Shown in pieces: positions 34,601 to 60,034 of a stretch of 64,000 nt of DNA; within the stretch, counting starts at the first letter, position 1; each line of letters starts with the position of its first letter. The stretch comes from Selaginella moellendorffii (taxonomy: Eukaryota > Plantae > Lycopodiophyta). The DNA lies in assembly GCF_000143415.4 (NCBI RefSeq), contig NW_003314387.1, positions 1 through 64,000 of the forward strand, in the 5' to 3' direction. The notes beneath the pieces were generated by a model. The model did no database searches. It was not told the DNA's origin and was given only the letters and a program-made list of their open reading frames with translations. The translations under genes were made by a program, and so were the position numbers.

Positions 34601-37600
34601 CTAGTTCCTTTGCACTACTAAGTTCTCTCACTTGAAATATTTGTGATCATACATAGACTCTTCCATGCTTGGCCCCATGGGCCACCCCTTTTGAAGTTAG
34701 CACCTTCAACTAGGGGATTTGTTCCCCTGACTTGCCACTCTCGCTTTGCAAGTCATCCAACTAATGTAACATGGTTTCATGCATAAGCGTGAAAGTCCTT
34801 GACTATCGACTTTCGTTCAAAGTCATCCCTTTGAACACTCGGGAACTACTTCCTCAACCTTGATAGCATTGCCTTATGGCAAGCTTCAAGATCACACTTT
34901 TGCTGTGCCACTCTGATTTCGCATGTTCTATGAACCATTTACACTGGCCTTTCTAGATACTATGCTACCTAGAATTGTCTTTGGAAACCTTGAAGGACCT
35001 CTGTCCCTTAGCTTGCTAAGGCCTCTCCTTTCGCAAGCTTTCTAATTACCATATGGTCTAACATGGACAATTTCATGCTTTAGACTTTCTATGGCACCAC
35101 AGTTGTTAGTAACAATATACTCGAGTGCCTACTTAATTCTCCACTCCCAACTGACATAACCACTCTTAGTTATGCTCTTCAATTTCTATAGTTTGGTTCT
35201 ATCCCTTTACTACTTGCTTTTGGCTTTACATATTTCCTTTAGTTATTCGCCTCCAGACTAAAAGGATAATTTTGCACTTTCTATCATGCCTTAACAAGTA
35301 TTCTTAGGGATGAACCTACCCGATAGCCTAGGGAGTGGTTTTTCAATCTGGGTATACTCACCTTATAATCCCACACACTAGGATTAACGTTGCTACATAT
35401 GGGCCTTTATATGCCCATCACTAGCTTTGCCAAAATTCCATTTTTGTCTTTGTCCAATTCGGGTAGATGGACTTCTCCTGTCTCCGCAACCTTGGACGTT
35501 TGGATAGCACTTTCTATCTATCATTTGCTAGGGACTTAGTCCTTTGGGCCTTATCTATTGCCCTCATAACATCAAACACCACCTCCTTGTGTTCTAGAAT
35601 GTTTGGGTGTCCCAATGATAGCCTCTTTGACAATGAACATTCCCTTTTACAACATTGACTTACTATATCGCAACATAAGCAATTTATCCCCCATAATGGT
35701 ATATCTAACTTCCTTATACCATTAAAAAGTCTTGGGTAGCTACCTTCTACCAGTTTAACCAATTATTTTGCACCTTTTGCTTAGTTGCTTCATAGTTGTC
35801 AAGTCCTACAACTCATTGCTAATGCTTCCACATCTCCATCATTATCTGGGTCACCACACTCCAATTGCATGCCTTCCAGCTTAGGCTATGCCATTCCCAT
35901 TTCCATTAGGATTCTTTTGGGAAGGGGTTCTCGTGAACCCACCAACTTGACCTCAAAGCATCACGTATTAGCACATTCGGTGTTGCCAAACCATCAGCTC
36001 TATGAGCCTACCTTATGACACTTCTTATTTGTGTCTAGGTCTTTACCAAGACCAATACAATCATTTCTAATGCCAACTATCCATTAGCACTGCACCATAT
36101 AGTTTAGACGCAACTTTGTGTCAAAGTTGTTTTCTTCTGGGAACCTCTTTCCCATAACTTTAATATGGCACATTCTGCCATCAATGAGATACCCACTATT
36201 CTCACACTTGGATCTTATGATCCTCCCCATCCTTCGTGGGGTACAACACACTTCAATCCAAATTTTTCTACTATTCCTCTAAGATTATTCCTTGACTTCA
36301 CTCGAGTCATCTAGCTTTTTGGACTTCACTAATCCAACGACTTATAAGGTCCCATTTTGAGGTGCCAGCTCGTTAAAATATAACTCCTTGTATTCATGTT
36401 CTACCTATAAAGACTATTCTTGCAAGTGTTACTTTGACACTTGATTATTCTTTATTCTATGTGGGCTACTTTTGCCCCTTAGGACTATTTGTCCATGTGA
36501 TAAGAATACCAACTCATCCTCTAAGTACACCCCTAATATCTTAGGTTGTTCTAACATTTATTAAGGGTAGCCTCAGCTACCATTTCAAGGACTTGTGTCC
36601 TTTTTCATATTTGACCTTCCACGGTCATTAATTTTGGTCTCAAATTCAAAAGCACCAACCTCAACTATATAAGGATAATCTTGTGACTCCTTTATTTTTT
36701 TGGAGTTTTTATTTTTCCCGTGATCCCAACTATAATTTTTTACCACAACTATATTAGCTAGTTTGCTGAGTCAAACATTCATCTAGATCACATCCTCAAC
36801 TCTTTGAGGAAACCTTATACTGTTCCCAAAATCCTAGAGTCGTTCCCTTATTAGCCATTTTCTATCCACCACCTTGCATACAAGTTCACACATGAACTGT
36901 AATGGGGAGTCCTGTCTTCTCAACCTACTACTCCTCAAGGATAGGCCCACTTCTAGGACCTTCCGATATCGACACAAGTGGTGATATATTTAAGCGCCAA
37001 TAAAAGTCGGACTAAGGAACAACTTAGATACCAAATTGTAAGCGACTAATTTTTCCATTCTACTTTAGTCATTTAACCACACCTCTGACCACTTGGAGGA
37101 GTCTCATTCACAACCTCCTTAAGTCCAATTTAGGACTTGGGACTTGCTAGCCCCGAGAATGGTATCCATGCCACTCATCCTTTGCACTTGGTCCAAGTGC
37201 TCCACGTGTCTGGTCCCAAAACCAACATCCCAAGATACCACCGACATACCAGCTCGTTATGCTAAGCCCATGCCCATTCACCTTGGTCACACCGGTGGTC
37301 GAACACCACCTACATCGCAGTCCCGTCTCTCAACAACTGGGCCATCTGTCCAGAAGTGACCATCCAAGATCCACTCCTTAGCATCCTTAAGATGTCTGCA
37401 AACATGGGGAACTGCCTTCCCCAATATCCCTTTTACAATCCCCACCAAGTCCCTTTTCTGTCCATGGCTGAGTTTGCTTACACTGCCACTGGGACAAGGC
37501 CCACGGGCCCGACCACTAAGTCCCACTGTCCTCTAGGACTTTCTCACCACATGACCATATCCTTGGTCACCACACTAGAAGACTGCTCCTCTTCCATTCT

Positions 37601-38574
37601 ACAGTCTGGGACTTTGGGACAACATTTCTGAACACCATGGCTTTATGCGAGCCTTGTGGGTACTCTCCTCACTTTCTGCCTTTAGGTGCTCTAGCCATGG
37701 GCTTAGAGCGAGGTTCCAATGAGCCACACTAGATATCCAAGTAGGTAGTGCCACCCACACTTGGATTGGGAGCATCAACCATTCGATCTCCCGGGAGAAC
37801 AAGAGCCAGCTCTTGAACACTTCACCAAGCTACCCTACTTGATGGTCCATAATTACTCTAGCCTTAGACCTCCCAGTGGTTATTCTGTCACCCAACACTT
37901 GGGTACAGCCTTTCTGGGCTAAACTGGCCTTTCCTAGCCAAATTGACTCCACTAGAGTCCTCCCTCTACTATACTTTTGGAGCTCACCAAACCCTCTAGA
38001 GTCTGGGAGATGAATGCTTTGGGCTTTCACCCTCGGACTCAGGCTCGAGCTCGGGCTTGGTCTCGGCCTCAGCCTCGGTCTCGGTCTCGGTCCCGGTCCA
38101 AGTCCTGTGTCCCGGTCCCGATCTCGGTCTTGGTCTTGACCTCGGACTCCATGTCAGGTCCTTCTTGGACTCCATCTCGGACTCCATCTCAGTCCATCTT
38201 GGTCCATCTCGGACTCCATCTTGGGTCCATCTCGAACACCATCTTAGACTCCATCTTGGGTCCATCTCGAACTCCATCTCGAACTCCATCTCGAACTCCA
38301 CCTCGAACTCCATCTTGGACTCCATCTCAGGTCCATCTCGGACTCCACCATATGTCATGTGTTAGTCCTCTTATGTCCCTTTTCTAGAGACTCTCTTATT
38401 GCTCACTTCATACTCATTCCTTGAGCACTTCATTGGGAGTCCCACTCCCACTCTCGACCTTTTAAGTCGAAGTTTTTAGTCCAAATGTGTTACGCTTGTT
38501 TTGCTTTCGCTTTGGCCACTACCACGTGGCACCCTTTTGGCTCCACTTTGGGGCTTAAGGATTTGTGTCTCACA
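31662..38574 (-). mobile_element. Family A non-coding LTR element, copy A2 (3' LTR <31662-32964, 5' LTR 37037-38574)
   Basis: Both LTRs end ...tgtgtctcaca. PPT complement follows 32964; degenerate PBS (gatacca) precedes 37037. The right end is followed by ctctc and the interior of another A LTR, so it is inserted in A3. Confidence 0.85.
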
Positions 38575-41500
38575 CTCTCAAATATTAAGTGATCTTTTCA
38601 TAAGTGGTCATCCTAGACCACACCTTAACATCCTTAAAATGCCCAAAGATAGGGGGAACACCCTTCCCCAATATCCTTTCTTCAATCCCCACCAAGTCCC
38701 TCTCCATCTATAGCTGTGCTTGCTGATACTGCCACTGGGTAAGGGCCTGAAGGCCCAACCATTAAGTTCTATTGACCTCTGGGACTTCCTCACCATGTGA
38801 TTTTATCCTTGGTCACACTACACATAAGAATTGATCTTGTTTCTTTCCATAATCTAGGTCTTTAAGATGACAATTCGAAACACTATGGCCCTATACAAGC
38901 CTTATGAGTACTCTCCCCACCTTTTACTTTTGGGTGTCCTAGCCATGTGGCTAGAGTGAGGTTTCAATAAGCCACACCAGGTATCCAAGTAGATAGTGCC
39001 ACCTCCACTTGGATTGGGAGCATTAGCCATTCAATCTCCTGGGGGAGCGAAAGCCAACTTTTGAACACTTCACTAAATTACCCCACTTATTTATTTGTAT
39101 TCACCCTACCTTTGGACTCTTTAGTGGTTATATTATCACCCACCATATGGGTATAGCTTTCTTTGGTCATATTGGCCTTTCTTGGCAAAACTAGCTCCAC
39201 TAGAGTCCTCCCTCTACTATACTTTTGGAGCTCACAAAACCCCATAAAGTCTGGGAGACGATTACTTTGGGCTTTCACCCTTGGTCTCGGATTCAGACTT
39301 GGACTTGGACTTAGACTCAGACTCAAACTCTATTTCAGTCTCAGTCTCGATCTCGGTCTCGATCTCAGTCTCGATCTCAGTCTTAGTCTCAGTCTTGTCC
39401 TTGGACTCGACCTCAGACCTCATCTTAGTCTCCATCTCGAACTCAACCTCGGACTCCATCTCGGGTCCATCTTGGACTTTATCATAGGTCCATCTCAGGT
39501 CCATATTGGATTCCATCTCAGACTCCTTCTCAGACTCATTCCTTACACTTCTATGTATCACAACATTTACCATGTGTTAGTCTTTCTTGTATCCCTTTTT
39601 AGAGACTCATTCATTGTTTCATACTCATTCCTCTAGCACTTTGTTCGAGGTTCTACTCCCACTCTTGACTTTCCAAATCAAAGCTTTTGGTCCAAACATG
39701 TTATGTTTGTTGGCTTTCCACTTCAACCACTATGATGTGGCACCCTTTTAGCTCCACTTTGGGGCTTAGGGATTTGTGCATAACTCTATTACCCATAGAC
39801 GAAGTTTAATATTCTCATCGAATAATAAACTATTTTATAAAATAACTTTATTATGGGTTACCATTTTCATCCTTGGCACTAAGCCAATATTTATCAATAG
39901 TTCTACACCAAAGGCTCACCATGCCTTGTCTATCCTCACAAGGGTATAGTGTCTCCAATTTAGAAATCTCCCTTTATTTGTTTAGTTCTCGCTTTTGGTC
40001 TCAATTTTACTACTCATTCTGGAGTAAGCTCAGGCTCTACCAACATAGCCATCACACTTTAGGATTTTAATATTGACATTTCAAGTCAATTTCTTAGGTG
40101 TTACATTACACCAGTTATACAAACACTACTTTCCCATAGTTTATGCTAGGGTTGTCTATAGTTCTATCATTTGGCTATCTTGCTGTTCCCTCTCTTGGAG
40201 CTTTCACTTTCTGCATATTAGAACATTCGGGAATCCATCCTTAGAAACATATTTCCTTTCTCATAATTTGTTAGTATCCAACACCTAAATGTTCCACGCC
40301 TAACTTTGCCACTTGGATTCTTTTCAATAATTTCCATAGCCCAATCTTGGCTACTAGTCTTTTACTCTAATTTTTTAATTTTTTTACCAAGCAATATAGG
40401 AACACTATTTCCATCATCGAGGTATGTTTTTGGTTCTATAGTAAAGGCTCTATTTTGCCAAATCCAAAAGATGTTTATTCCTAGTAAGTTTTTTTAATAT
40501 TTTTTGCTATGGGCTCTATCCATAGCCCAACTTTGTAACCTTTCTATAGGTGTTTCTTAAAGATTACTTTCTTGGACTCACTATATTAATATAGCATATT
40601 CCCTTAAGTGTCTTTTCCATTTGGTCACCTCGACCAAGTCATACCATCACTAATAGTTCAAATCAACACTTTGAACTAGGAATCTTATTCCTTAACTTAA
40701 TAAGGGCTTTGTCCTTATTTAGTTATAAGATCATCTAATGATCTCACTTTAACACTTTGATTATGACCTCTGCACCTAAGCTAGCCCTTTGAGCCAAGAG
40801 TCCATAATAACTGAGATTGGGTGTCTTTATTTCATTCACCACATCCTTAATGCCACTTACACTAAAGTGTTCAAATTAAATATGTTGAGCTTTCACATTA
40901 AGCAATTTAACTGTGCATTATGACTCTAGGGCATCCCCCATTTGGTAGTGTGCATAAGCCAACTTCTTTACTAAGAGTCTATAATCACCAAAAAATGAGT
41001 GTCTTTATATTCCAAACCATCATTACACCCTAGTGAGTTAAAACTCAAACCCAAACAATAAAGAGTTAGGACTTGAACCCAACCTTCATATATGCATCTA
41101 CGGGCAACATCACCAAAGATGTCTGGCATAACTCTCCACGCTGGTGCACCAACTTATATTTAACACATGCTACAGATTACAGCTTAGGAACTTAATTCCT
41201 CTGAGCTTCCAAATCTTCTCATTTAACATACTATTTAACCAGTCTGTGATCATACATGAACTCCTCCATGCTTGGCCCCATGGGCCACCCTTTTGAAGTT
41301 AACACCTTCAATTAGGGTTTTAGTTCCTCTAACTTGCCAATCTCACTTAGCAAGTCACCTAACTAATATAACATGGTTTTTTGCATAAGCATGAAAGTTC
41401 TCAAACATTGACTTTTGTTTAAAGCTATTTTTTTGAACACTCGGGAACTATTTCCCAAACCTTGATAACCTCACTTTATGGCAAGTTTCAAGACGATGCT

Positions 41501-43544
41501 TTTGTTGCATCATTTTGATTTTACATATTCCTATGAACTATTTACACTTGGCTTTCTAGGTACCAACTTACCCAGAATTGTCTTTGAGAACATTAAAGGG
41601 ACTCTGTCCCTTAGCATGCTAAGGTTTATCCTTTCATAAACTTCCTTTTTACCATATCATCTAATATGGGTAATTCCATACTTTTAGACTCATTAGCAAC
41701 ACCTTCAAGCACCCATTTGATTTTCCACTCCCAATTTGCATAGTCACCCTTAGCTATGCCATTCGATTCTTATAATTCAATTCTATCCCTTTACTACTTA
41801 TTTTTTGGCATCACACGTTTCTTTTGGTTATTCTTCTCCAAGTTAGGAGGATAGCTTTGCACTTTTTACTATGCCTTAGCAAGTATTTATAGGGATTAAT
41901 ATACTCAATAGCCTAGGGAATAGTTTTTCAATTTGGATATGTTCACCTTGTAATCCCACATACTGGGATTAACATTGCTACTTATGGGCTTTTATATGCC
42001 TATCTCTAGCCTTGCTAAATCTTTTTGGCTTTGTCTAATTTGGATAAATAGACTTCTCTTGTCTCCGCAACCTTAGACGTTGGATAACACCTCCTAACCA
42101 TTATTCATTAAAAACCTAGTGTTTTGGGCCTTATCCAATACCTTCATGATACCAAACACTACTTCTTGGTGTCTTAAAGTGTCTAGGTGTCTCAATGATG
42201 GCCTTATTTGATAATGAGTATTTCCTTTTACGACATTGACTCACTATATCGCAATATAAGTAATTAATCCTTCAAGGGATAGATCTAACCTTTTTATTAT
42301 CATAATAAAAAGTTTTGGGAAGTTAACTTCTACCAATTTAATCAATTATACCACATTTTTTCTTTAGTTGCTTCATAGTTGTCAAGTTTTACAACTCATT
42401 ACTAGTGCTTCCACATTTCCATCCTTGTTTAGCTTAATGCACTCAAATCATATGCCTTCTAACTTAGGTTATGCCAATATTATTTCCATTGGGATTCCTT
42501 TAATAAAAGGTTCCTTAAACCAATTAAACCTTAAGGCATTATCCTTTGAGACATTTAGGGTCTCCACCCCATTAACTCTACAAACCTACCCTCAAGACAC
42601 TTTCCACATGTGTTTAGGTTTTGCTAAGACCAAAGTAGTCATTTCTTACCAATTATTGATTAACACTACTTTATAGTGTTTATATACAACTTTTTGTCAA
42701 AGTTGTTGTCTTCTGTAAACACTTTTTCATGGCTTTAGTATGACACTTTCCGCCATCAATAAAATACCCATTGTTGTCATACTTAGATCTCATGATCCTC
42801 CCAGACCTTCGTAAGGTACAACACATCTTTATTCAAACAAGATTCCTCTAAGCCTTTGGGACCATCTCTTAACCCTACTGAGTCATATAACTTTTAAACT
42901 TTGTGAATCTGATGTCCCATAAAGCTTTAGCCTCTTGGCTACTTTTGAAGTGTCATCACACTTGAATACAACTTCTTGTATTTGTATCTTATTCACAAGG
43001 AATGTCTTCTCAAGTGTTATTTTGACACTTGTTTACCCTTTATTCTATATAGGCTATTTTCACTCCTTAGAATTATTTTCCCATATAATGAGAATACCAA
43101 TTGATGCTTTGAATGCACCCCACAATTCCTTGGGTTGCACTGGCCTTTACTAAATGTCGCCCCAGCTATTATTTCAAGAACACATGCCCTCATCTGTATT
43201 TGACCTCCCATAGCTATTAACTCTAGTCTTAAATTTATAAACACTATCCTCAGCTATATAAGAATAATCTTATGACTCCTTTATTGTCTCAAGGTCTCTA
43301 TCTTTTCCATGATCCCAACTATAGTTGTTTATCACAACCACATCAGTTGGCCAAAGTCATTCTCTTATTGGCCCCTTTCTATCTACCACATTGCTAACAT
43401 ATTTACATATAAACTAAGGTGGAGAGTCAAGCCTTCTCGACATGCTATTCCTCAAGGATAGACCCACTTTTGGGACCTTCTAATGCTAATACAAGTGGTG
43501 ATATACTTAACCATCAATAAGTGTTGAACTAAGAAACAACTCCA
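38575..43544 (-). mobile_element. Family A oldest copy A3 (3' LTR remnant 38575-~39782, internal region to 43544; resumes at 59068-59124)
   Basis: Colinear with A1/A2 but AT-shifted. Its PBS is split: gaaacaactcca (43544) | ataccaaat tgtaaacaattaaattttcc (59073 onward). Confidence 0.8.
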
Positions 43545-44547
43545 TGTAAGAGACTAAATTTTCCATTCTACTTTAGTCACTTAACCACACCTCCGACCAT
43601 TTGGAGGAGTCTCATTCACAACCTCCATTAGTCCAATTCAGGACTTGGGACTTGTTAGCCCCAAGAATGGCATCCATGCCACTCAACACTTGCACCTAGT
43701 CCAAGTGCTCCACGTGTCCGCTCCGAAGACCGACACCCAAAGGTACCACTGACATCTCGGCCTGTTACGCTAAGGCCATGCCCATTCACCTTTGCTGCAC
43801 TAGTGGTCCAATACCACTTGCATCACCATCCCGTCTCTCCAAGACTGGGCCATCTGTTCACGAGTGGTCATCCTAGATCCACTCCTTAGCATCCTTAGGA
43901 TGCCCACCGACCTGGGGAATCGCCTTCCCCAAAGTCCCTTTGTCAGTTCCTACCAAGTCCCTTTCTGCCCCTGGCCGTGTTTACCAACACTGCCACTGGA
44001 TCGAGGCCCACAGGCCCGACCACTAAGTCCCATAGTCCTCTGGGACTTCCTCACCACACGACTGTGTCCTTGGTCACTACCCCAGAGGATTGCTCCTCTT
44101 CCTTTCCACAGTCTAGGCTTTTGGGACAACATTTCGGAACACCGTGGCCTTACGCGAGCCACCTGGGTACTCTCCCCGCCTTTCGCCTTTAGGTGCTCTA
44201 GCCATGGGCTTAGAGCGAGGTTCCGTTGAGCCACGCCTGGTATCCAAGTAGGTAGTGCCACCCACACTTGGACTGGGAGCATCGGCCAGTCGATCTCCCG
44301 GGGGAACTAGAGCCGGCTCTTGAACACTTCACCAAGCTACCCCGCTTGTCGGTCCGTATTCACTCTAGTCTTGGACTTCCCAGTGGTCAGTTCATCACCC
44401 AACACTGGGTCTGGCCTTCCTGGGCCAAACTGGCCTTTCCTGGCCAAACTGGCTCCACTGCAGTCCTCCCCCTTACTATACTTTTGGAGCTCACCAAACC
44501 CCCCAGAGTCTGGGAGACGAACGCTTTGGGCTTTCACCCTCTCAGGC

Positions 44548-45456
44548 TCCGGACTCGGACTCGGACTTGGACTCGGACTCAGACTCGGATTCGGACTCGG
44601 ACTCGGGCTTGGGCTCGGTCTCGGCCTCGGCCTCGGTCTCGGCCTCGGCCTCGGTCTCGGCCTCGGCCTCGGTCTCGGCCTCGGCCTCGGTCTCGGCCTC
44701 GGCCTCGGTCTCGGTCTCGGTCCCGATCTCGGTCTCGGTCCCGGTCTCGGTCTCGGTCCCGGTCTCGGTCTTGACTTCGGACTCCATCTCGGACTCCATC
44801 TCGGACTCCATCTCAGACTTCATCTCGGGTCCATCTCGGGTCCATCTCGAACTCCATCTCGGACTCCATCTCGGGTCCATCTCGGACTCCATCTCGGACT
44901 CCATTTCGGGTCCATCTCGGGTCCACCTCGGACTCCATCTCGGACTCCATCTCGGACTCCATCTCGGGTCCATCTCGGGTCCATCTCGGACTCCATCTCG
45001 GACTCCATTTCGGGTCCATCTCGGGTCCACCTCGGACTCCATCTCGGACTCCATCTCGGACTCCATCTCGGGTCCATCTCGGACTCCACTTCGGACTCCA
45101 ACTCGGGTCCATCTCGGGTCCACCTCGGACTCCACTTCGGACTCCATCTCAGGTCCATCTCGGGTCCACCTCAGACTCCACTTCGGACTCCATCTCGGAC
45201 TCCACTTCGGACTCCATCTCGGACTCCATCTCGGGTCCATCTTGGACTCCACTTCGGACTTCAACTCGGGTCCATCTCGGACTCCACTTCGGACTCCAAC
45301 TCGGGTCCATCTCGGACTCCACTTCGGACTCCAACTCGAGTCCATCTCGGACTCCACTTCGGACTCCAACTCGGGTCCATCTCGGACTCCACTTCGGACT
45401 CCAACTCGGGTCCATCTCGGACTCCACTTCGGACTCCAACTCGAGTCCATCTCGGA
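44548..45456. repeat. Hexamer plus 11/12-mer tandem array inside the A LTR (GACTCG, GTCTCG/GCCTCG, CTCGGACTCCAT, CTCGGGTCCAT)
   Basis: Directly visible. Related arrays at ~31943-32738, ~38031-38348, ~39283-39540 and ~58300-58836. Confidence 0.95.
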
Positions 45457-47479
45457 CACTCCCACGTGTCATGTGTTGGTCCTTTTGGGTCCCTTTTTGG
45501 AGCCTCGCTTTTTGCTCGCTTCGTGCTCGTTCCTCGAGCACTTCTTTGGGAGTTCCACTCCCGCTCTTGACTTTTCAAGTTGGAGCTTTTGGTCCAAACG
45601 TGTTACGCTCGTTTGGCTCTCGCTTCAGCCACTACCACGTGGCACCCTTTCTGGCTCCACTTTGGGGCCTAGGGATTTTGTGTCTCACAACTCCACCACC
45701 CATAGACGATGTTCGATGTCCTCATCGAACGGTAAACCCTTTCATAAAGTAACACCCACACGTGTTACCATTTCCATCCTTGGCACCTAGCCAATCTTTG
45801 TCTATGGTTGACACCAAAGGCTCACCATGCCTTGTCCATCCTTTAAGGAGCGTAGTCTCTCCAACTTAGAGACTGATTGGACCACATGTAATGGTTCTCT
45901 CCTTTTATTGGTTTAGTTCTCGCTAAACCTCTTAGAGACCCTTCTCTAAGTCAATCCCACTACTCCTTCTCGAGTAGTCTCAATTTCCATCGATATAACC
46001 TCTGCACTTAGGAACTTTGAATTTTGACTCCTTGGAGTCAATTTCCTAGGTGTCTCCGACACCTTGCCTTGCACCTTTTGTGCAACTCCACTTCCCATCC
46101 TAGGAAGTTCTCTACTCGAGGGCACCATCATCCTCTCTTCTATTTCGTGCCAAAGTTCCAGTTATCATACTTTGTGCTAGGGCTGTTCATGGCCCTATCA
46201 TTTGGCTACCTTACCGCTCCCTCCCTTGGAGTTTCCACTTTCGCCAAATCGGAGCAATTCGGAATCCATCCTTGGAAACACACTTCCTTTCCCGCAATTT
46301 GTTAGCGTCCAACACATTAGTGTTCCTCGCCTAACTTTGTCACTTGGATTCCTTCCCAGGGATTCCACGGCCCTATCTTGGCCACTCACCTTTTGCTCCT
46401 ATCCGTTGATTGTTGCACCGAGCAACGTCGAATCTCTACCTCCCTCCTTGAGGTATTCTTTTGATTCCATAGCAAAGGCTCTGCTTTGCCAAGACTAGGG
46501 TGTTCACCCCTAGTAAGTCTCTTTTAGCATCTTCTGCTATGGGCTCTATCCTCGGCCCAACTTTGTGACCCTCTCATGGGTCTCTTTAGAGACTACTTTC
46601 CTTGGACACACTATGCCATCGCAATGGCATAGCTCATTTCCCTAAGGTGCTTTTCCCACTTGGTCACCTTGACCAAGCCACACCATCATCAATAGTTCAA
46701 ATCAACACTTTGAACTAGGAACCTTATTCCTTAACCCAAACAAGGACCTTGTCCTTATTTAGCCACAAGATCACCTAGTGATCTCACCTCGGCACCTTAA
46801 CAGGTTTGCCAATAGGTACTAGGTCTTCCAGACCTTTAACTTGTTAACTACGACCCCGGGGGCATCCCCCACACTTGGCGGTGCGCCCAAGCCAGCCCTT
46901 CCGGCCAAGGGTCCATAGCAACTGAGATTAGGTGTCCCCATCTCACTCACCACGTCCTTGGTGCCACTTGCACCAAAGCGTTCAAGTTAGATATGCCGAG
47001 CTTTCACACTAAGCAATCTAACCGTGCATCACGACTCCGAGGCATCCCTCGTTTGGCGGTGTGCCCAAACCAGTCTCCCCACTGAGAGTCCATGACCACC
47101 GAAATATGAGTGTCCTCATATTCCAAACCATCACCATGCCCTAGTGATTTGGGACTCGAACCCAAGCACTAGAGGGTCGGGACTCGAACCCAACCTCCGT
47201 ATATGCATCTACGGACGGCATCACACAAGATGCCTGGCGTGACTCCCCACGCCGGTGCACCAACTTATTTTTAAAGCGCGCTACAGATCACAGCTTAGGA
47301 ACCTAGTTCCTCCACACTGCCAAGTCCTCTCACTTGACACGTTTGTGATCATGCATGGACTCCTCCATGCTCGGCCCCATGGCCCACCCTTTTTGAAGTT
47401 ATCACCTTCAACTAGGGTATTTGTTCCCCCGACGTGCCAATCTCGCTTGGCAAGTCCTCCGACCACTGTAACATGGTTC

Positions 47480-50400
47480 TGTAAGGAACCGACTCCCCGA
47501 GATGTCGTAGGCTAAAGGATCCCCAAAAGCTTGACCAAAATGACAAAGAGTTCATCGGATGGGACCAAGTCAAGGATCGAGTCCAAGACCGACTCTAGGA
47601 CCGAGTTCGAGATAGGGTCCGGAATCGAGTCCAAGACCGACTCGGGGACCGAGTTCGAGTCCGAGTTTGAGACCGAGTTCGAGACGGAGTCCGAGATCCG
47701 AAATCGGGTCCGAGACCGAGTCCGAGGTCGAGTCCGAGGTCGGATCCGAGATCGGGTCCGAGATCGAGTCCGAGATCGAGTCCGAAACCAAATCCGAAGT
47801 CGGATCCGAAATCGGGTCCGAGATCGAGCCAGAGACTAAGTCCAAATACTAATACGGGTCAAGGGGTGAAAGCCCAAAGCGTGCGTCTCCCAGGGGGGGG
47901 GGGCTGCAGGGGGTTCCAAAAGTATAGTAGGGATAGTGATGTCCAGGAACCAGTTTTGAGGGGACTCTCCAGTTGGGCTTCCAAACCGACTTGAGGTTGG
48001 GACTGGGACCGAGGGGCCTTGGGTGGGAGTGAGCATGGACTTGGCTGGTGCCGGAGGGGCCATCTAAGGAAGTGCTCAAGAGCAGCTCCCACTCCCGAAA
48101 GGGAAACCGACTGCGGTGCTCCCGGCTCAGATGGAGTGGTGCCCCACTTGAGTACCTCGTGGCTCATTGGTCCTCGCCCTTCCGGGGGCTTGGGCCTTCC
48201 CTTCGGGATGGAAGAGGGGGGGTAGAGGTACCCATACCGGGCCGTTAGGCCACGGTGTTTCGCCCCGACATCCCGAAGCAAGTGCTGCACCCAAGACTTG
48301 GGATTTAGAGGGTCCCATGATCAAGTCTTGTGGTACCAAGGGGTGTTAGGAATCTGGAGGCTTGGTGTGCTTGGCTGCTTGTGCCTGCGGGGAGTGTAGC
48401 CGAACCTTAAGTCCAGTCTAACCCGGGGAGGGGGATTGGGAGAGATTTGGGAATCCGTAGATGGATGGCTAACACTCCGTTGCTCGTGCAGTGAGTAGTT
48501 GAAACCAAGTAGGACCAAGTAGGAGCTGGTACCATAGGCGAGAACCTTGGTGAGGGAACTTAGCACAAGCCAAGGCAGAGTTGGTCGGATAGACGAGGTA
48601 AGCTGGCAAATTGGAAAGGAAAAATTTGTGGCTTACAATTTGGTATCGGAGCCTCTTTCTCAGTTCTAGCGAAGGATAGAGGCGGATTGCTGGGAGATGG
48701 CAAGGGCAGGACGTAAGCGAACCCAGGCAGAGACGGAACCTCCTCCAGAGCTGGAGCCTCCGGTCGAACAGGAGGCAATGGATGAGGAATCCTTGCATGA
48801 GGAGGACTCCAGTGAGGCAACTTCCAAACAGGAGTCTGGTGGTGAGGTTCGGTCATCCAAGGCTCGATTGGATGTTCTAGAAGGACAATTGGCACAGACC
48901 AATGCCTTGCTAGAGACTCTCGTACGCAAGCTAAAGCGTGACGAGAAGCGGAAGAAAAAGCGAAAGACTGCGGATGCTGGTAGCGTAGAAGGTGCGGACC
49001 CTTCGGCAGGGACTGAGGCAAAACCAGATAAGGTCGAACAGACCGAAGTGGAATCAGTCCCTCAGGCAGTTCCCAAGTACAAACCAAAGCCCCCACCGGT
49101 CTTCAAGGGAGTGAACGACTATAAGGTGGTGGAGGATTGGTTTTACGATATGGAGGACTACTTTCGAGCGTTGCAATTACCAAGCTCGGAGAAGGTCCCA
49201 TGTGCAAAACCATACTTGGCAGATAATGCCAAGTCTTGGTGGAGAACGACAGAGGCCAACGAAGGACCGGTGGCCACTTGGGAAATGATGAAGGCGAGGA
49301 TCCGCGCAACTTACGTTCCTCCGAATGCTACTCTGCATCTAAGGGACGAGCTGAGTAGGCTAAAGCAGACTGGAACCATTCAGGAGTATGTGAATGGGTT
49401 TATGGCAAAGAGGATACTTGTCACGGACATGGGGGATATGGATGCGTTCCATGCCTTTATATCAGGTTTGCAAACCTGGGCTCGCGGCGAAGTAATGCGG
49501 TGGAACCCGACCAACTACAAAGAAGAGTTGGATGCGGCCATCAAGGTGCATTTCAACGATAACCTACGAAAGGGGAACACGACGGGGTCGGGATCCACGT
49601 TTAGCAAAGGGGCCAAACCAAGGGGAACTTTTAGCAGAGGGAAATTCAAGAAGAGTTTCTCTAAGAATGAGTCCTCGGGGTTCCGGAAAGGCAGATCCAG
49701 TGGCCAGCGAGCGAGTACGTGGGGGAGTCAGGCGAAAAGAGATAAACCCACGGATAAGAAGGTCAAGTCATATAGCAGCGTGGGAAACAACGTATGCTAC
49801 AACTGCGGTGAAGCGGGACACTTCTCGAGGGAATGTCCCTACCCGAAGAAGGCCAGAGCCAATATGGCCATCAAGTCGGGCGAAGTCCAAAATGAGGTAT
49901 GTGATCCAGTCCCTAACTCAAAGTTACTCATTACACGAGCAACTTTGGTAGAGAGTCGTTCGCGACATCTACTAGCCCTCCGAGGGAAGCTCGGAGGTAG
50001 CTTTGTTAAGATCCTTATTGACACGGGTGTTTTGGATAATTTTGTGGCTGCAGACATAGTCCGGCAAGCCGGACTAACGGTGCAGCGGCTAGGCGAACCA
50101 AGGACTATAGAGTTTGTTCAAGGTAGCCAAAGCACCGATGAGGTACTTCGACAAGCGAGAGTCGAAGTGGGGACTTGGAAGGTGGACATGGATTTCACCG
50201 TGTTGGACATGGCGGGATTTGACGTGATCTTCGGAATGGACTGGTTCAATCGATTCGTGGTAGCCCTGCATGGACAAGGTAGAAACCTTGTGGTACTGGC
50301 GAATGCCCAAGGAAGAAGATCTAGGGTGGAGGCCCAAGATCTAAAGGTAGGGCAAAGCAAGGCCAAAGATTCCTGCTTAAACCTGGTGTCCACGAGAGGA

Positions 50401-53400
50401 CAACTCACTAAAGGAACTAAGGCGGCCTTTTTGTGCTTACTCTCGGTGAAGAGTGACAGAAAGACAGGAATGGAAGAAGTACCTTTAGTGATCCAGCGGG
50501 TGTTGGACCAATTCCAGGATACCATGCCGGAGGAGCTACCGGCGGGGCTACCCCCAGCACGACCGATAGAACATAAGATTGAGCTAGTTGAGGGTGCTGA
50601 GGCAGTGGTTCGTCCCCCTTATCGTTTGAACGAAAAAGAACTCAAGGAGCTCAAGTGCCAACTAGAGGAGTTGGTGGACAAAGGGTATGTTAGGTTGAGC
50701 AAGTCGCCGTATGGGGCGCCGGTGTTATTTGTGAAAAAGAAAGATGGATCTATGCGCATGTGCATAGACTACCGGTTGCTCAACAAGTATACAAAGAAGA
50801 ACAAGTACCCTTTGCCAAGGATTGAGGACATATTCGATAGGTTGGGAAAGGCAAAATACTTCTCGAGGATTGACCTAAGGTCAGGATACTACCAGATCAG
50901 GGTAGCCGAGGAAGATGTCGAGAAGACAACCTGTCGAACGAGGTATGGAAGCTTTGAGTTTCTGGTGATGCCCTTTGGGCTGTGCAATGCACCGGCAACG
51001 TTTTCGGCGTTGATGAACCATATCTTTGTACCCTATCTGGATCACTTCGTGGTCGTCTATATCGACGACATCCTGATCTATAGCGAGACGCTAGAGGAGC
51101 ATGCCGAACACTTGGCGAAGGTGTTTGAGAAACTAAGGGAACACAAGCTGTATGCTAAAGAGAGCAAATGTGACTTTGCTCAACAAGAGGTAAAGTTTCT
51201 CGGGCATGTGGTGGGCCAGGACGGGCTCAAGGTGGACCCGGAGAAGGTCCAAGCAATCCAGGAATGGGAGCGACCAGCCAATGTACATGAGTTGAGGGCA
51301 TTCCTGGGGCTATGCAACTACTATCGAAAGTTTATCAGACACTATTCGAGAGTAGCCCTGCCCTTAACGGACCAAACAGGAAAAGGGAAGATGGTGTGGA
51401 CAGCGGAATGCGAGGCGGCATTCGTCCACCTCAAAGGGAAGTTGAGGAAGGCTCCCGTATTGGCATTACCAGACTTTGGTAAGGACTTTGAGGTAGAAAC
51501 GGATGCTTTGGACTTTGCGTTGGGCGCAGTTTTGAAGCAAGACAACCATCCGGTAGCGTTCTTCTCGAAGAAGCTGGACAAGGCTCAACGGAAGTGGCCT
51601 GCCCACGAGAAGGAATTGTTTGCGGTGGTCAAGGCGCTCAAGGAGTGGCGACACTACCTTGGGAGACACTTCAAGGTTTACACGGACAATGTGGCAACGA
51701 AACACTTCTTGTCACAGCCCGACCTAAGAGGGAAACAAGGTCGGTGGGCTAATGCCTTGGCCGAGTTTGATTGCGAAATTCTGTACAAGCCTGGGAAGAG
51801 CAACATCATGGCGGATGCGCTAAGTCGAAAAGCGAGCTTGAGGTTGGCAATATCCAGCGCAACAGCAACCTTCTGGGACGATGTGCGGACAGCATATGAG
51901 AACGATGGTCTAGCACAAGAAGTGTTGCTGAGGAATCTAGAGGCGCGGGAAGCTCACCAGAGAGGTGAGCTGCCAACGGAAGAGAAAACGGGCTATGCGG
52001 AACGCAACGGACTCATTTATTACAAGCAAACGAGGGTGTATGTTCCAGAAGGGGAACTAAGGAAGGTGGCCTTAGAAGAGTGTCATGACGGACCTCTTGC
52101 GAGACACAGTGGAGTGCCCAAGACGATGGACTTACTCAAAAGGAAGTACCATTGGCCAAATATGGCTAAGGACGTCCAAGACTATGTAAAGACATGTCCA
52201 ACATGTCAGCAGGTAAAAGCCGTGACTAAGGCTAGTGGGGGCTTGTTGCAAAGCATCCCAATTCCAGATCACCCGTGGAAATGTCTTACGATGGACTTCA
52301 TCACGGGACTCCCTCCAAGCGAGGGGTTTGATGCGATATTCGTGGTGGTGGACCGATTTTCGAAAATGGCACACTTCATACCCACCACAACGGAGGTGGA
52401 TGCGGAAGGTGTGGCAAAGCTGTTCTTCGAACAAGTGGTTCGAGTGCGGGGAAGACCGGAAGAGATCATCTCCGATCGAGATAAGATCTTCACCAGTAGG
52501 TTCTGGAGGACTCTCCTGGAACAGTATCGCACCAAATTGAAATTCAGCACAGCCTATCACCCACAGACAGGTATGGGGTATTGAGTCAAGTTGTGGGAAC
52601 TAACACTTCTTGACAGACGGACAAACGGAAAGGGTGAATAGGCAGCTGGAGGATTATTTGCGATGCTATGTCTCGGGAGACCAGACCGATTGGGTAAGTC
52701 ATTTGGGACTTGCGGAGATGTGTTATAACAACTCACCACATTCGAGTATCGGGGTGAGTCCATGGGAAGTCATCAATGGGCGAGCTATTGAAGGTCCTGT
52801 GGAACTCGGCGTGGCCGAGTATCATGGAGAGTTGCCCGCAGTGGAGGCATTCACGGCGGAAAGACTCAGCATTTGGAACCTAGTGAGGGATTCCTTGGAA
52901 CAGGCTCAACAAAGGCAAACCAAATACGCGAACCAGAAGCGTCGGGATGTAGAGTTCCAAGCTGGGGAGAAGGTGTGGCTGAACACCAAGAACCTCAGAC
53001 TACCAAGTGGGATCAGCCGAAAGTTGACCCAAAGGTAAAGATGCATGTATTCCTGTAAATGAATTGATCTTGAGTTCCTTAAGCAGGTTCGCGGGGCCTT
53101 ACGAGATTGAGGCACGAATCGGTAAAGTGGCTTACCGACTCCGACTTCCTCGAGAGATGGGGAAGATGCACCTAGTGTTCCACGTGAACTTACTCAAGCC
53201 GTACTTTGAGGATCCGCTTCGCAAGGACCAAGTGAGACCTTTACCTGAGGTTATCCAAGGGGAAGAGGAATACGAAGTCGAGGCCATCCTCAATGCGCGC
53301 AAGAGCAAGCGACAAGGACGCGAGGTGAGAGAGTTCCATGTGAAGTGGAGAGGATTTCCACACTGCGAAGCAACATGGGAACCGGAGGAGAACCTAGCGA

Positions 53401-55028
53401 ACGCTCGAGATCTAGTGGAGGAATTTCTGCAAGGCAGAACTCTATGTACTTATGCAAAATTCAATTAAAAATATCAATTTGCAAAGTTGAGCAAGTGGCA
53501 TATGTTGGGACCCGAAGGCGCGCCAAAGGTAAGCTAATTAGCATGGGTTGGATAGGTCGACCAGGCGTAGGGCACTACGCCCGACTCCCTGCGGGGATGT
53601 CGAATCCGTAGACGTATTCTACGGAGGTTGGGTTCGAGTCCCAACCCCCTAGTAGAGCAAGGCTGGGTTCAAGTCCCGACCCCATACTAGGGCGTGGTGA
53701 GGTGAGGAGTATAGGGACACCTATATTCCGTTGTCATGGGCTCTTGGCCGGGGAGGCTAACTTAGGCACACCGCTAAGTGGGGGGATGCCCCTGGAGACA
53801 TGGTCAACAAGTCGTAGGATAAAACAAGACGTTCGATGTGGGCATCGAACTTCTTCTATGGGTGGTGGAGTTGTAAGGAACCGACTCCCCGAGATGTCGT
53901 AGGCTAAAGGATCCCCAAAAGCTTGACCAAAATGACAAAGAGTTCATCGGATGGGACCAAGTCAAGGATCGAGTCCAAGACCGACTCTAGGACCGAGTTC
54001 GAGATAGGGTCCGGAATCGAGTCCAAGACCGACTCGGGGACCGAGTTCGAGTCCGAGTTCGAGACCAAGTTCGAGACGGAGTCCGAGATCCGAAATCGGG
54101 TCCGAGACCGAGTCCGAGGTCGAGTCCGAGGTCGGATCCGAGATCGGGTCCGAGATCGAGTCCGAGATCGAGTCCGAAACCAAATCCGAAGTCGGATCCG
54201 AAATCGGGTCCGAGATCGAGCCAGAGACTAAGTCCAAATACTAATACGGGTCAAGGGGTGAAAGCCCAAAGCGTGCGTCTCCCAGGGGGGGGGGGCTGCC
54301 GGGGGTTCCCAAAGTATAGTAGGGATAGTGATGTCCAGGAACCAGTTTTGAGGGGACTCTCCCGTTGGGCTTCCAAACCGACTTGAGGTTGGGACTGGGA
54401 CGAGGGGCCTTGGGTGGGAGTGAGCATGGACTTGGCTGGTGCCGGAGGGGCCATCCAAGGAAGTGCTCAAGAGCAGCTCCCACTCCCGAAAGGGAAACCG
54501 ACTGCGGTGCTCCCGGCTCAGGTGGAGTGGTGCCCCACTTGAGTACCTCGTGGCTCATTGGTCCTCGCCCTTCTGGGGGCTTGGGCCTTCCCTTCGGGAT
54601 GGAAGAGGGGGGGTAGAGGTACCCATACCGGGCCGTTAGGCCACGGTGTTTCGCCCCGACGTCCCGAAGCAAGTGCTGCACCCAAGACTTGGGATTTAGA
54701 GGGTCCCATGATCAAGTCTTGTGGTACCAAGGGGTGTTAAGAATCTGGAGGCTTGGTGTGCTTGGCTGCTTGTGCCTGCGGGGAGTGTAGCCGAACCTTA
54801 AGTCCAGTCTAACCCGGGGAGGGGGATTGGGAGAGATTTGGGAATCCGTAGATGGATGGCTAACACTCCGTTGCTCGTGTAGTGAGTAGCTGAAACCAAG
54901 TAGGACCAAGTAGGAGCTGGTACCATAGGCGAGAACCTTGGCGAGGGAACTTAGCACAAGCCAAGGCAAAGTTGGTCAGATAGACGAGGTAAGCTGGCAA
55001 ATTGGAAAGGAAAAATTTGTGGCTTACA
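47480..55028 (+). mobile_element. Family B full-length Ty3/Gypsy chromovirus; LTRs 47480-48637 and 53872-55028; TSD GGTTC
   Basis: TG...CA LTRs of 1158 and 1157 bp with roughly 15 differences by eye. TSD ggttc at 47475-47479 and 55029-55033. PBS TGGTATCGGAGC at 48641. PPT ATGGGTGGTGGAG before 53872. Confidence 0.97.
48697..53468 (+). CDS. Gag-Pol polyprotein (Gag, CCHC, PR, RT, RNase H, IN, chromodomain); join 48697-52570, 52617-53034, 53087-53468
   Basis: [14 protein letters not shown]; LIDTG; YIDD; RNase H; HHCC; MDF...SDRD...HPQTD|GQTER; KLTQR|FAGPY; chromodomain YEVEAIL...VKWRGF...ATWEPEENL. Two GT-AG intervening segments of 46 and 52 nt. Confidence 0.9.
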
Positions 55029-58000
55029 GGTTCCTGCATAAGCGTGAAAGTCCTTGACCATCGACTTTCGTTCAAAGCCCCCTCTTTGAACACTCGGGAA
55101 CTACTTCCGTAACCTTGATAGCCTTGCCTCATGGCAAGCTTCAAGACCACGCTTCTGCTGCGCCACTCTGATTTCGCGCATTCCATGAACCATTTACACT
55201 TGGCCTTTCTAGGTACTAAGCTACCTAGAATCGTCTTTGGTAACCTTGAAGGAACTCTGTCCCTCAGCTTGCTAAGGCCTCCTTTTTTGCAAGCCTTCCA
55301 AATGCCACATAGTCTAACATGGACAATTCCATATTTTAGACTCTCCATGGCATCACGGTTGCTAGCGGCAACACCCTCGAGCCCCCACTTGATTCTCCAC
55401 TCCCAGCTGGCATAACCAACCTTGGTTATGCCCTTTGATTCCTACGGTTCGGTTCTATCCCCTTACTTCTTGCTTTTTGGCTTCACACCTTTCCTTTGGT
55501 CATTCTCCTCCAGACCAGGAGGATAGCTTTGCACTTTCTATCATGCTTTAGCAAGTATTTTTAGGGATGAACCTACCCAATAGCCTAGGGAGTGGTTCCT
55601 CAATCCGGGTATGCTCACCTTATAATCCCACACACTGGGATTACATTATTGCTTATGGGCCTTTACATGCCCATCACTAGCCTTGCCAAAATTCCATTTT
55701 TGGCTTTGTCCAACTCGGGTAGACAGTCCTCTCCTGTCTCCGCAACCTTGGACATTTGGATAGCACCTTCTATCCATCATTCGCTAGGGACTTAGTCCCT
55801 TGGGCTTGATCCATTGCCCTCGCGACATCAAACACCACCTTCTGGTGTTCTAGAGTGTTCGGGTGTCCCAATGATGGCTTTTTTGACAATGAGTATTTCC
55901 TTTTATGACATTGACCTACTATATCGCAACACAAGCAACTTATCCCCCGTAAGGGTATATCCAACTTCCTTATGCTATTAAGAAGTCTTGGGTAGCTACC
56001 TTCTACCCGTTTAACCAGTTATTTTGCACCTCTTGCTTGGTTGCCTCATAGTTGTCAAGTCCTACAACTCATTGCTTGGTGCTTTCACACCTCCATCATT
56101 ATCTGGGTCACCACACTCCAACTGCATGCTCTGCAGCTTAGGCTATGCTATTCCCATTTCCATTGGGATTCCTTTGGCAAGGGGTTCTCATGAACCCACC
56201 AACATAGCCTCAAGGTATCACACCTTGGCACATTTGGTGTCTCCACACCATCGGCTCCATGAGCCTACCTCTATGACATTTCCCCTTCGTGTCTAAGTCT
56301 TTGCCAAGACCAACACCGCTCTTTCTCATGCCAACCATCCGTTAGCACTGCACCATAGAGGTCACACACAACTTTATGTCAAAGTTGTTTTCTTCTGGGA
56401 ACACCTTTCCCATAATTTTAGCATGGCATATTTTGCCATCGATGAGATACCCTCTGTTCTCATCCTTGGATCCTATGATCCCCCCCCATCCTTTGTGGGG
56501 TACAACACACCTCAGTCCAAATGCTTCCATCAGTCCTTTTAGGACCATCCGTTGACTCTACTTGAGTCATCCAACAGTTTTGGACTTGGTTAATCCACAG
56601 ACCCGTAAGGTCCTACTTGTGAGGCACTAGCTCACTGGAATACACTTCTTGCATTCCTGTCTTACTCAAAAGGACTATTTTCACAAGTGTTACTCCGACA
56701 CTTGATTTTGTTCTCTGGGGGCAACCTTTGCCCCTTAGGATTACTTGTCCATGTGATGAGAACACCAACTCATCCACTTAATACACCCCCAACACCTAGG
56801 GTTGTTCCAGCATTTATTAGAGGTAGCCCCGGCTTCCTTTTCAAGGACTTGAGTCCTCTTCCGTATTTAACCTCCCACGGTCATTACTTCTGGTCTCACA
56901 TTCATGAGCACCAACCTCAACTATATGAGGAAAATCTTGTGACTCCTTTATTGCTTTGGAGTCTTTATCTTTCCCGTGATCCCAACTGTAGTTGTTTACC
57001 ACAACTACACTAGCCAGTTTGCTAAGTCAAACGCTCATCTGGATCACATCCCCAACTCTTTGAGGAAAACCATATACTGTTCCCAAGATCCCAAAGTCGT
57101 TCCCTTACTGGCCCCTTTTTTTTATCCACCACATCACGCCCAAGTTCATGCATGAACTCGAGTGGAGAGCCATGTCCTCTCGACGTGCTACTCCTCAAGG
57201 ATAGGACCACTCCTAGGACCTTCCGATGTCAATATCAATGGTGATATACTTGAGCGCCAATAAAAGTAGGACTAAGGAACAGCTCTGATACCAAGTTGTA
57301 AGAGACTAAATTTTCCATTCTACTTTAGTCACTTAACCACACCTCCGACCATTTGGAGGAGTCTCATTCACAACCTCCATTAGTCCAATTCAGGACTTGG
57401 GACTTGCTAGCCCCAAGAATGGCATCCATGCCACTCAACACTTGCACCTGGTCCAAGTGCTCCACGTGTCTGGTCCGAAGACCGACACCCAAAGGTACCA
57501 CTGACATCTCGGCCCGTTACGCTAAAGCCATGCCCATTCACCTTTGCTGCACTAGTGGTCCAATACCACTTGCATCACCATCCCGTCTCTCCAAGACTGG
57601 GCCATCTGTTCACGAGTGGTCATCCTAGATCCACTCCTTAGCATCCTTAGGATGCCCACCGACCTGGGGAATCGCCTTCCCCAAAGTCCCTTTGTCAGTT
57701 CCTACCAAGTCCCTTTCTGCCCCTGGCCGTGTTTACCAACACTGCCACTGGATCGAGGCCCACAGGCCCGACCACTAAGTCCCATGGTCCTCTGGGACTT
57801 CCTCACCACACGACTGTGTCCTTGGTCACTACCCCAGAGGACTGCTCCTCTTCCTTTCCACAGTCTAGGCTTTTGGGACAACATTTCGGAACACCGTGGC
57901 CTTACGCGAGCCACCTGGGTACTCTCCCCGCCTTTCGCCTTTAGGTGCTCTAGCCATGGGCTTAGAGCGAGGTTCCGTTGAGCCACACCTGGTATCCAAG

Positions 58001-58418
58001 TAGGTAGTGCCACCCACACTTGGACTGGGAGCATCGGCCAGTCGATCTCCCGGGGGAACTAGAGCCGGCTCTTGAACACTTCACGAAGCTACCCCGCTTG
58101 TCGGTCCGTATTCACTCTAGTCTTGGACTTCCCAGTGGTCAGTTCATCACCCAACACTGGGTTTGGCCTTCTTGGGCCAAACTGGCCTTTCCTGGCCAAA
58201 CTGGCTCCACTGCAGTCCTCCCCCTTACTATACTTTTGGAGCTCACCAAACCCCCTAGGGTCTGGGAGACGAACGCTTTGGGCTTTCACCCTCTCAAGCT
58301 CCGGACTCGGACTCGGACTCGGACTCGGACTCGGACTCGGACTCAGACTCGGATTCGAACTCGGACTCGGGCTCGGGCTCGGTCTCGGCCTCGGCCTCGG
58401 TCTCGGTCTCGGTCCCGA

Positions 58419-58462
<44 letters not shown>

Positions 58463-59124
58463 CCGGTCTCGGTCTTGACTTCGGACTCCATCTCGGACTC
58501 CATCTCGGACTCCATCTCGGACTCCATCTCGGACTCCATCTCGGGTCCATCTCGGGTCCATCTCGGACTCCATCTCGGACTCCATTTCGGGTCCATCTCG
58601 GGTCCACCTCGGACTCCATCTCGGACTCCATCTCGGGTCCATCTCGGACTCCACTTCGGACTCCAACTCGGGTCCATCTCGGGTCCACCTCGGACTCCAC
58701 TTCGGACTCCATCTCGGGTCCATCTCGGGTCCACCTCGGACTCCACTTCGGACTCCATCTCGGACTCCACTTCGGACTCCAACTCGGGTCCATCTCGGAC
58801 TCCACTTCGGACTCCAACTCGAGTCCATCTCGGACACTCCCACGTGTCATGTGTTGGTCCTTTTGGGTCCCTTTTTGGAGCCTCGCTTTTTGCTCGCTTC
58901 GTGCTCGTTCCTCGAGCACTTCTTTGGGAGTTCCACTCCCGCTCTTGACTTTTCAAGTCGGAGCTTTTGGTCCAAACGTGTTATGCTCGTTTGGCTCTCG
59001 CTTCAGCCACTACCATGTGGCACCCTTTCTAGCTCCACTTTGGGGCCTAGGGATTTTGTGTCTCACACTCCAATACCAAATTGTAAACAATTAAATTTTC
59101 CATTCTATTTAGTCACTTAACCAT

Positions 59125-60034
59125 TGTAAATCATAAAATTTTCCTTTCTAATTTGTCAGTTTACTTTGTCTATTTAACCACTATTGCCTTAGCCTTAGTT
59201 AAGTTCTTTTACCAAAGTTCCCACTTATGTTACTAGCTCCTATTTAGTCCTATTTGACTTCAATTACTTACACAAACAACAAGGCATTAACCATTTATTT
59301 ACGAATTCCCAAATTCTCTCTCAATCCCCCCCCCCCCCCCTCGGGTTAGACTAGATTTAAAGTCTGGTTACACTCTCCACAAGCACAAGCAGCCAAACAC
59401 ACCAAACTTCAAATTCTTAACATCCCTTAGTACCACAAGACTTAATCAAGGGACTTTCTAAATCCTAAGCTTTAGATGCATTTCTTACTTCGGGACCCCA
59501 AAGGGAAACACTATAGCCTAACAACCTAGTATAATACTTTTACTCCCCCACTTTCATTCTGAAGGAAAGGCCCAAGCCCCTAAAGAGCAAAGACTAATGA
59601 GCCATATGGTACTCAAGTGGGGCACCACTCCACATAAGCCAAGAGCACTATAATTAATTTCTCTTCTGAGAGTGGGAGCTAATCTTGAACACTTCCTTGG
59701 GTAGCCTCTCTGGCACCATCTAACTCCATGCTCACTCCTAGCCGAGGCCTTTAACCCCCAATCTCAACCTTAAGTCAGTTTGGAAGCACAATTGGAGAAT
59801 TCTTTCAAGACTGATTTCCTAACCTCACTATCCTTATTATACTTTTGGAACCCCTACAGCCCCCCTCCCCCTAGGAGACAATCACTTTAGGCTTTCACCC
59901 CATGACTATATTAGTATTTAGACTCGGTTTTGGACTTGATTTTGGACTTGATCTCAAACTCGGACTTTAGCCTCAATCTTGAACGTAATCTCAGACTTGG
60001 TCTTGGACCCAATCTCGAATCTCGGACTCCGTCT
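59125..60034 (-). mobile_element. Older truncated family B LTR inserted into the 5' LTR of A3
   Basis: tgtaaatcataaaattttcctttc... is a diverged reverse complement of the B LTR end. Colinear through ggctttcacccc and the repeat array, then ends. Confidence 0.85.

Follow-up and report, generated by a model that had tools for sequence, protein, structure and literature searches.

Short introns within the integrase of a Selaginella SM1-Galahad chromovirus, with a proposed reason for their retention

The evidence supports reading two short segments in the integrase region of a Selaginella moellendorffii retrotransposon, designated introns C and D, as introns of spliceosomal type, cut out in probable RNA and a trait of the family, not damage to a single copy. 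That they are real introns, and family-wide, we regard as almost certain. Two further introns lie over the primer site (A) and the protease (B), and the copy is a young SM1-Galahad element carrying four host-type introns. Introns A and B overlap functional sequence, unlike C and D, which are insertions.

The copy occupies positions 47480-55028 (plus strand, 7549 bp) of the window, by which we mean the whole 64-kb stretch of S. moellendorffii DNA that was analysed; a gene adjacent to the element is 100% identical to a protein of that species across 76% of its length. The hallmarks of Ty3/gypsy elements are present. Two LTRs of the TG...CA form, at 47480-48637 (5', plus strand, with 12-bp tandem repeats and a poly-G tract) and 53872-55028 (3', plus strand), differ by 15 substitutions and one gap over 1158 columns. 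They are enclosed by a duplication of the target site (TSD), 5 bp long, GGTTC at 47475-47479 and again at 55029-55033, in keeping with the near-identical LTRs and perfect duplication of the original prediction; at a paralogous empty site near 34776 the GGTTC motif is present once. A putative primer-binding site (PBS) of tRNA-Met type lies at 48641-48653 (plus strand) and is recognized from sequence only, a 13-bp tRNA-Met PBS having been published for SM1-Galahad. A G-rich but imperfect polypurine tract (53860-53870, plus strand) directly precedes the 3' LTR. Pfam models find the domain order Gag, protease, reverse transcriptase (RT), RNase H, integrase. The unspliced ORF1 (48697-52584, plus strand; 1295 aa, 3885 bp) encodes Gag with its zinc knuckle, protease, RT, RNase H, and integrase as far as the DDE triad's second Asp, and so stops inside integrase, as had been predicted, ahead of the third residue, Glu. 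The chromodomain that marks a chromovirus (Pfam Chromo, E=1.5e-16) is encoded in the third of the coding pieces described below and joins integrase solely via splicing. A second pol was not found elsewhere in the window.

The element is nested among minus-strand repeats at 31733-38348, 41382-47478, and 55031-59090, which have similar 12-bp tandem arrays, a PBS-like stretch near 37056 and 59086, and no pol match; possibly they are non-autonomous relatives. A diverged LTR-like stretch at 59123-60029, also on the minus strand, is 74% like part of the element's LTR, and in it the donor of intron A is weakened. An assembly gap at about 31290-31680 adjoins the repeat cluster, and the window contains 476 N in total. 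On the minus strand at 28749-29627, a 292-codon frame occupies a very AT-rich island with a composition unlike that of the surrounding genes; its B-lectin match is weak, below Pfam's cut-off.

The element matches SM1-Galahad (Novikov et al. 2012, PMC3350952) by anatomy, that is by lengths, ORF layout, and poly-G, not by consensus alignment. The available text of that paper puts the copies in the hundreds, resembling one another at about 95%, with the ORF truncated, and found none intact. The published family measures 7.5 kb, with poly-G in LTRs over 1 kb, a tRNA-Met PBS, a 3885-bp ORF of 1295 aa without a chromodomain, and a 309-bp last ORF with one. The middle ORF is 316 bp there and 318 here, while for the last ORF the published 113 aa is inconsistent with its own 309 bp and we find 103 aa. 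Placement of Galahad elements in the Galadriel clade is taken from the same text, which in its available portion reports no TSD for the family, whereas here a TSD was found and the breaks are read as introns. Neither 'intron' nor 'splic' occurs in the paper. The family was known, then, as SM1-Galahad, and its introns are absent from that description; the original prediction missed the earlier account, together with introns A and B and a probable internal poly(A) signal. Because the consensus of many SM1-Galahad copies ends its ORF at the same length, the integrase break is a family trait. The prediction that the break is not random decay holds up, both through the 3885-bp ORF of the published consensus and through the presence of C and D in diverged copies.

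Intron C (52571-52616, plus strand; 46 nt, CAG/GTATGG...TTGACAG) interrupts the integrase core in phase 1, just upstream of the catalytic Glu, and intron D (53035-53086, plus strand; 52 nt, AAG/GTAAAG...AAGCAG) interrupts the SH3-like C-terminal domain of integrase in phase 2. Their coordinates, lengths, GT-AG ends, and in-frame stops (at 52582 in C and 53036 in D) are as first described. Features of U2-type introns are found in both: GT-AG ends, AG at the exon end, a branch-like motif (CTAAC 13 nt upstream of the end of C; in D of this copy a weak motif only), lower GC, and a size like that of host introns. Nine hand-picked host introns in the window, with boundaries inferred from protein motifs and not from RNA, measure 46-72 nt, which agrees with the host-like size originally claimed. 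Two of the introns used in this comparison belong to a multi-exon host gene at 21300-25337, which we take to resemble a cation channel. GT-AG ends alone are within chance expectation, because the internal region contains 815 GT..AG spans of 40-70 nt, 19 of them of the form G/GTA..YAG, and because 10 frame-keeping GT-AG pairs are available around the first break and 19 around the second. The species median intron length is 59 according to Table 3 in the available part of PMC3729371.

The abundance of such spans would suit an explanation of C and D as copy-specific damage with chance GT-AG ends, but each segment is skipped exactly in contigs from two studies, both are present in diverged copies, and the family consensus has identical ORF lengths, so that we consider this explanation exceedingly improbable. 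Alignment to relatives, from 205 proteins examined with X placed at the split codons, bears out the claim that removing C and D restores the frame of integrase and chromodomain: within 4 residues, 202 of 203 spanning relatives are gap-free at the first break and 176 of 184 at the second. These gap-free relatives, together with exact skips of 46 and 52 nt in RNA-type contigs, fix the chosen boundaries. The two introns match neither each other nor the remaining window sequence. Short repeats at their borders, 5 nt for C and 4 nt for D, would be compatible with gain by insertion.

A search listed 24 sequencing runs, none recorded as RNA, of which six were guessed to be RNA. Five of these (X15-X19, from four studies) were compared with two DNA-type runs, X1 and X6, all as contigs; X2-X5, X7-X14, X20 (the sixth guessed RNA run), and X21-X24 stayed outside the comparison. 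RNA-type and DNA-type runs come from different plants. Contigs on the element number 1 to 20 in the guessed RNA runs, 18,912 in X1, and 660 in X6, and a low number on a high-copy element fits an RNA origin of the guessed runs. RNA-type contigs from two studies start at 47950 and 47953, and from these contig ends only we infer a transcription start near 47950, about 25 nt past a TATA-like stretch at 47923. A short LTR stretch, 47863-47896, is shared with an abundant different sequence in X6, X16, X18, and X19.

The junctions 52570^52617 and 53034^53087, named in advance by the original prediction, were looked for and found as exact skips in RNA-type contigs, each in two studies. Intron C is skipped in three of the five runs (X16, X17, and X19); X15, X18, and another contig from X19 retain it. 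Intron D is skipped in X15, X16, and X17, again three of five, and is not bridged by X18 and X19 in the pieces shown. The observed cuts equal the predicted ones moved left by 5 letters (C) and 2 letters (D) of the border repeat. The joints corresponding to A, B, C, and D, with lengths of exactly 66, 157, 46, and 52 nt and each GT..AG, were seen only in RNA-type runs. The spliced subset varies by run: X15 keeps C and drops D, X18 drops B and keeps A and C, and X19 has both forms of C. Run X18 carries a variant of intron C that is one base longer. In X16 the sole assembled path drops all four introns and would thereby be a message for Gag whose tail is very long, and among the RNA-type contigs none has the Pol-making form in which B is kept and C and D are removed. 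The X15 contig at 52537 runs upstream into unrelated sequence and probably stems from transcription, at another locus, of a copy that is truncated or interrupted.

In DNA-type runs the introns are present. The joint table covering X6, read as shallow DNA, is complete at seven rows and gives X6 no joint at any of A-D, and X6 contigs cross B (depth 74), D (depth 60), and C (depth 3.2, with 115 at 52590). Among the best 15 of 24 joint rows in X1 there is no joint at C or D. C and D are also spanned, with a single gap apiece, by X1 pieces whose divergence is about 14% (25 differences over 177 nt, 33 over 240 nt), and loose ends in X1 show varied intron interiors; splice signals of C and D are conserved while the interiors differ between copies. 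Depth in X1 over C is 5.5e5 against about 1e6 around it, a dip ascribed to divergence of this copy's intron. Exact removal in RNA combined with presence in DNA, another feature of U2-type introns, is thus observed for both C and D, with run types guessed and with contigs in place of reads. Of the two outcomes that would have counted against the original prediction, that most copies lack the insertions or that spliced forms are missing despite expression, we found neither. The original interpretation is supported in part; its packaging of unspliced RNA and its regulated integration switch are hypothetical.

Rare intron-free DNA copies are possible, because contigs lose rare forms, because 15 of the 24 X1 joint rows are listed, and because X1 dips over C; the skipped forms might then be transcripts of rare intron-free genomic source copies, those with C and D being dead ends. 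The differing plants behind the RNA and DNA runs are consistent with this. However, a copy without A would have no primer site and one without B no protease site, yet X16 drops both, and the dropped segments differ between runs. Neither X6 nor the best 15 X1 rows contain such a joint, the 2012 survey, in its available text, found no copy with a continuous ORF (PMC3350952), and the copy described here combines young LTRs and a TSD with all four introns. We consider intron-free sources very unlikely, and splicing remains the preferred reading of the skipped forms.

Beyond the break the coding sequence stays open, and the three coding pieces, of 1291, 138, and 126 aa, are stop-free. Piece 2 (52617-53034, plus strand) encodes the end of the integrase core with the catalytic Glu, plus a linker, and shows typically 34-47% identity to intact relatives across its full length. 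Piece 3 (53087-53468, plus strand) encodes the remaining SH3-like domain and the chromodomain, to the stop, and matches Pfam models SH3_Tf2-1 and Chromo. Differences between copies were taken from the best 40 of 271 rows, a biased subset, with 38 exonic differences counted and two within C excluded. Third positions account for 18 of the 23 listed differences before C (p=1e-5), for 10 of the 12 lying between C and D when read in the spliced frame (p=5e-4), and for 0 of the 3 after D. A third-position excess in piece 2, which lies past the unspliced stop, suggests that piece 2 is translated.

These observations bear on the possibility that SM1-Galahad is integrase-defective and mobilised by its intron-free sister SM2-Galahad, with C and D as old disabling insertions spliced by chance. 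According to the available text of PMC3350952, SM2-Galahad has a single 1577-aa ORF and hundreds of copies with LTRs 99.7% identical, which favours this reading, and the SM1 integrase protein is known here from sequence alone. Pieces 2 and 3 are nevertheless open and in register with intact relatives, copies show the third-position excess in piece 2, and splice signals are conserved amid variable intron interiors; we judge such mobilisation improbable and continue to read C and D as introns of a probably functional integrase gene.

Protein searches found no close family member, the best full-length match being 47% for piece 2 and, for the stretch from RNase H to integrase, 48% and 51%. Exact protein look-ups were negative in five of five cases, a metagenome scan returned 11 distant, mostly fragmentary loci, none informative on the breaks, and two viral scans found no relatives. 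One of 326 retroelement proteins, P0173, departs from the conserved integrase motif three bases later than the element here and ends soon after; its residues at the departure could be encoded by a splice donor.

Intron A (48598-48663, plus strand; 66 nt, GAG/GTAAGC...TCTCAG) spans the final 40 nt of the LTR and the entire PBS. Its donor is strong and its pyrimidine tract clean, the two flanking precisely the LTR end and primer site. Three RNA-type runs were examined at A and B. The joint of A occurs in X16 only, in one contig with 120 letters on the short side, and A is kept in X18. Intron B (49897-50053, plus strand; 157 nt, phase 0) is part of the coding sequence, where it spans the DTG motif of the protease; its joint was found in X16 and X18, from two studies. 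Removal of B brings in a stop at 50057, one codon past the joint, which terminates Gag 20 residues past the zinc knuckle with a predicted product of 401 aa. In foamy virus, the major splice donor lies upstream of the PBS.

At the other end of the element, a predicted internal poly(A) signal (53441-53480, plus strand) coincides with the lowest-GC 40-mer of the element (17.5%), with TGTA at 53445 and ATTAAA at 53464. This ATTAAA is the sole sense-strand instance in the element, overlaps the Pol stop, and sits 400 nt ahead of the 3' LTR, upstream of the polypurine tract; AATAAA is absent. We take TGTA and ATTAAA in an AT-rich stretch at the Pol stop to be the layout of a poly(A) site. The RNA-type contigs stop at 53336, 53415, and 53425, and these differing ends are a weak hint of early termination. 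Cover in X18, a run that keeps A and C, is low over 53447-53888 and runs on beyond the poly(A)-like signal. In X16 and X19, RNA contigs leave the polypurine tract and U3 uncovered, which is not proof of early termination.

Classically, retrotransposition is proved by the disappearance of an intron from the new copy. We propose that in this family spliced mRNA makes the proteins yet cannot be reverse-transcribed, new copies arising only from unspliced RNA, and we think this probably correct; the corresponding account of intron retention, through primer-site loss with or without early termination, is likewise the one we hold to be rather likely. Transcription would begin near 47950. Messages from which B is removed would give Gag alone, and those that keep B and lose C and D, a predicted class, would give the full 1557-aa Gag-Pol with complete integrase and chromodomain. 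Removal of A would take the LTR end and PBS from the message, and messages may well terminate at the poly(A)-like signal that overlaps the Pol stop and would then have no polypurine tract and no 3' R or LTR. Such messages would not be copied into cDNA, because they would be without a primer site and, if ended early, without polypurine tract and 3' R. RNA that escapes splicing would keep all cis signals and serve as sole template, so that new copies would inherit C and D, and it would encode at most an integrase without the catalytic Glu. Because this copy is young and complete with four introns, it must derive from unspliced RNA.

Several points stand against this proposal: intron A is known from one contig of one run among the three examined, contigs cannot place removal of A, C, and D on the same molecules, the Pol-making form is absent from the contigs, the assembled X16 path would yield Gag, RNA contig ends vary while X18 has low cover past the poly(A)-like signal, and none of the three differences after D is at a third position. 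Partly spliced forms exist, and an RNA that keeps A with C or D removed could therefore be copied. Such RNAs, together with the single finding of the A splice, leave room for an account in which the introns are real and needed but persist otherwise, either by a separate promoter or processing route for genomic RNA, as in BARE1, or by Gag picking unspliced RNA via an intronic signal, primer-site loss being a side effect. The BARE1 precedent is a split between RNA pools that differ in start site, cap, and poly(A) (available text of PMC3735527). The strong donor and clean pyrimidine tract of A, set exactly around LTR end and primer site, speak against this account, as do two RNA starts at one place (47950 and 47953); we regard it as unlikely, and prefer retention through primer-site loss. 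A fuller version of the proposal, in which the message-or-genome decision is wholly given to the host spliceosome, with A erasing the primer site, B setting the Gag:Pol ratio, and C and D tying active integrase to uncopyable RNAs, is offered tentatively, as something that may hold but that we would not yet expect to.

Parts of this arrangement have precedents. SM2-Galahad and Galadriel-like chromoviruses share the domain order, with the closest of the proteins compared at 1534-1543 aa and 52-55% identical from RT to integrase, but have a single continuous ORF, unbroken at C or D; the predicted spliced length here is 1557 aa against 1577 aa for SM2-Galahad (available text of PMC3350952). In Ogre elements of pea and Medicago, as described in the available part of PMC6317226, some transcripts have a Ty3/gypsy intron removed so that the whole polyprotein can be made, while the DNA keeps the intron. 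Ogre already is a case of a persisting intron required for Pol, so the element here is not a new category. Ogre differs, however, in having a single intron, about 270 bp long and lying between Gag-protease and RT, and none within a catalytic domain, and that part of the source reports no primer-site intron. Intron B resembles the optionally spliced intron, at the protease or where gag ends, by which EVD and other Arabidopsis Ty1/copia elements make a Gag-only mRNA; EVD couples splicing to early termination, and no such conserved splicing was found in Arabidopsis Ty3/gypsy elements (all from the available text of PMC5580714). In BARE1, translated, spliced RNA is excluded from replication, and splicing in CRR is mentioned in the same available text (PMC3735527). 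EVD and BARE1 are copia elements whose Pol comes from unspliced RNA, whereas here Pol requires splicing, and BARE1 excludes messages through a missing R (PMC3735527), here proposed to occur through loss of the PBS. Foamy-virus polymerase and integrase are likewise translated from spliced RNA, not from the genome, but by one large splice to a separate Pol ORF and with no short introns in integrase, according to the available part of PMC7828637. Penelope-like elements also keep spliceosomal introns through an RNA intermediate, but are not LTR elements and have neither PBS nor DDE integrase (available part of PMC4209133). A 2025 review, in its available text, describes plant LTR elements as generally without introns and lists only Ogre and EVD with functional ones (PMC12786077). 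In the open-access literature we found no report of splicing in Galahad elements and none of introns inside the integrase of an LTR element; 'Selaginella' was not found in the REXdb supplements, among which the element table is probably not included.

The finding means that a catalytic domain of a high-copy family retains short introns, for which a simple and testable reason is proposed. It offers a natural case of the separation of mRNA from genome in retroelements and an instance in which introns were gained, to be compared with a sister family that has none. If the fuller version of the proposal is true, introns in the coding sequence of the element would evade the purge by reverse transcription and could accumulate as they do in a host gene, and altered host splicing would turn integration on or off. 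In genomes whose introns are small, other families recorded as lacking intact copies may be intact.
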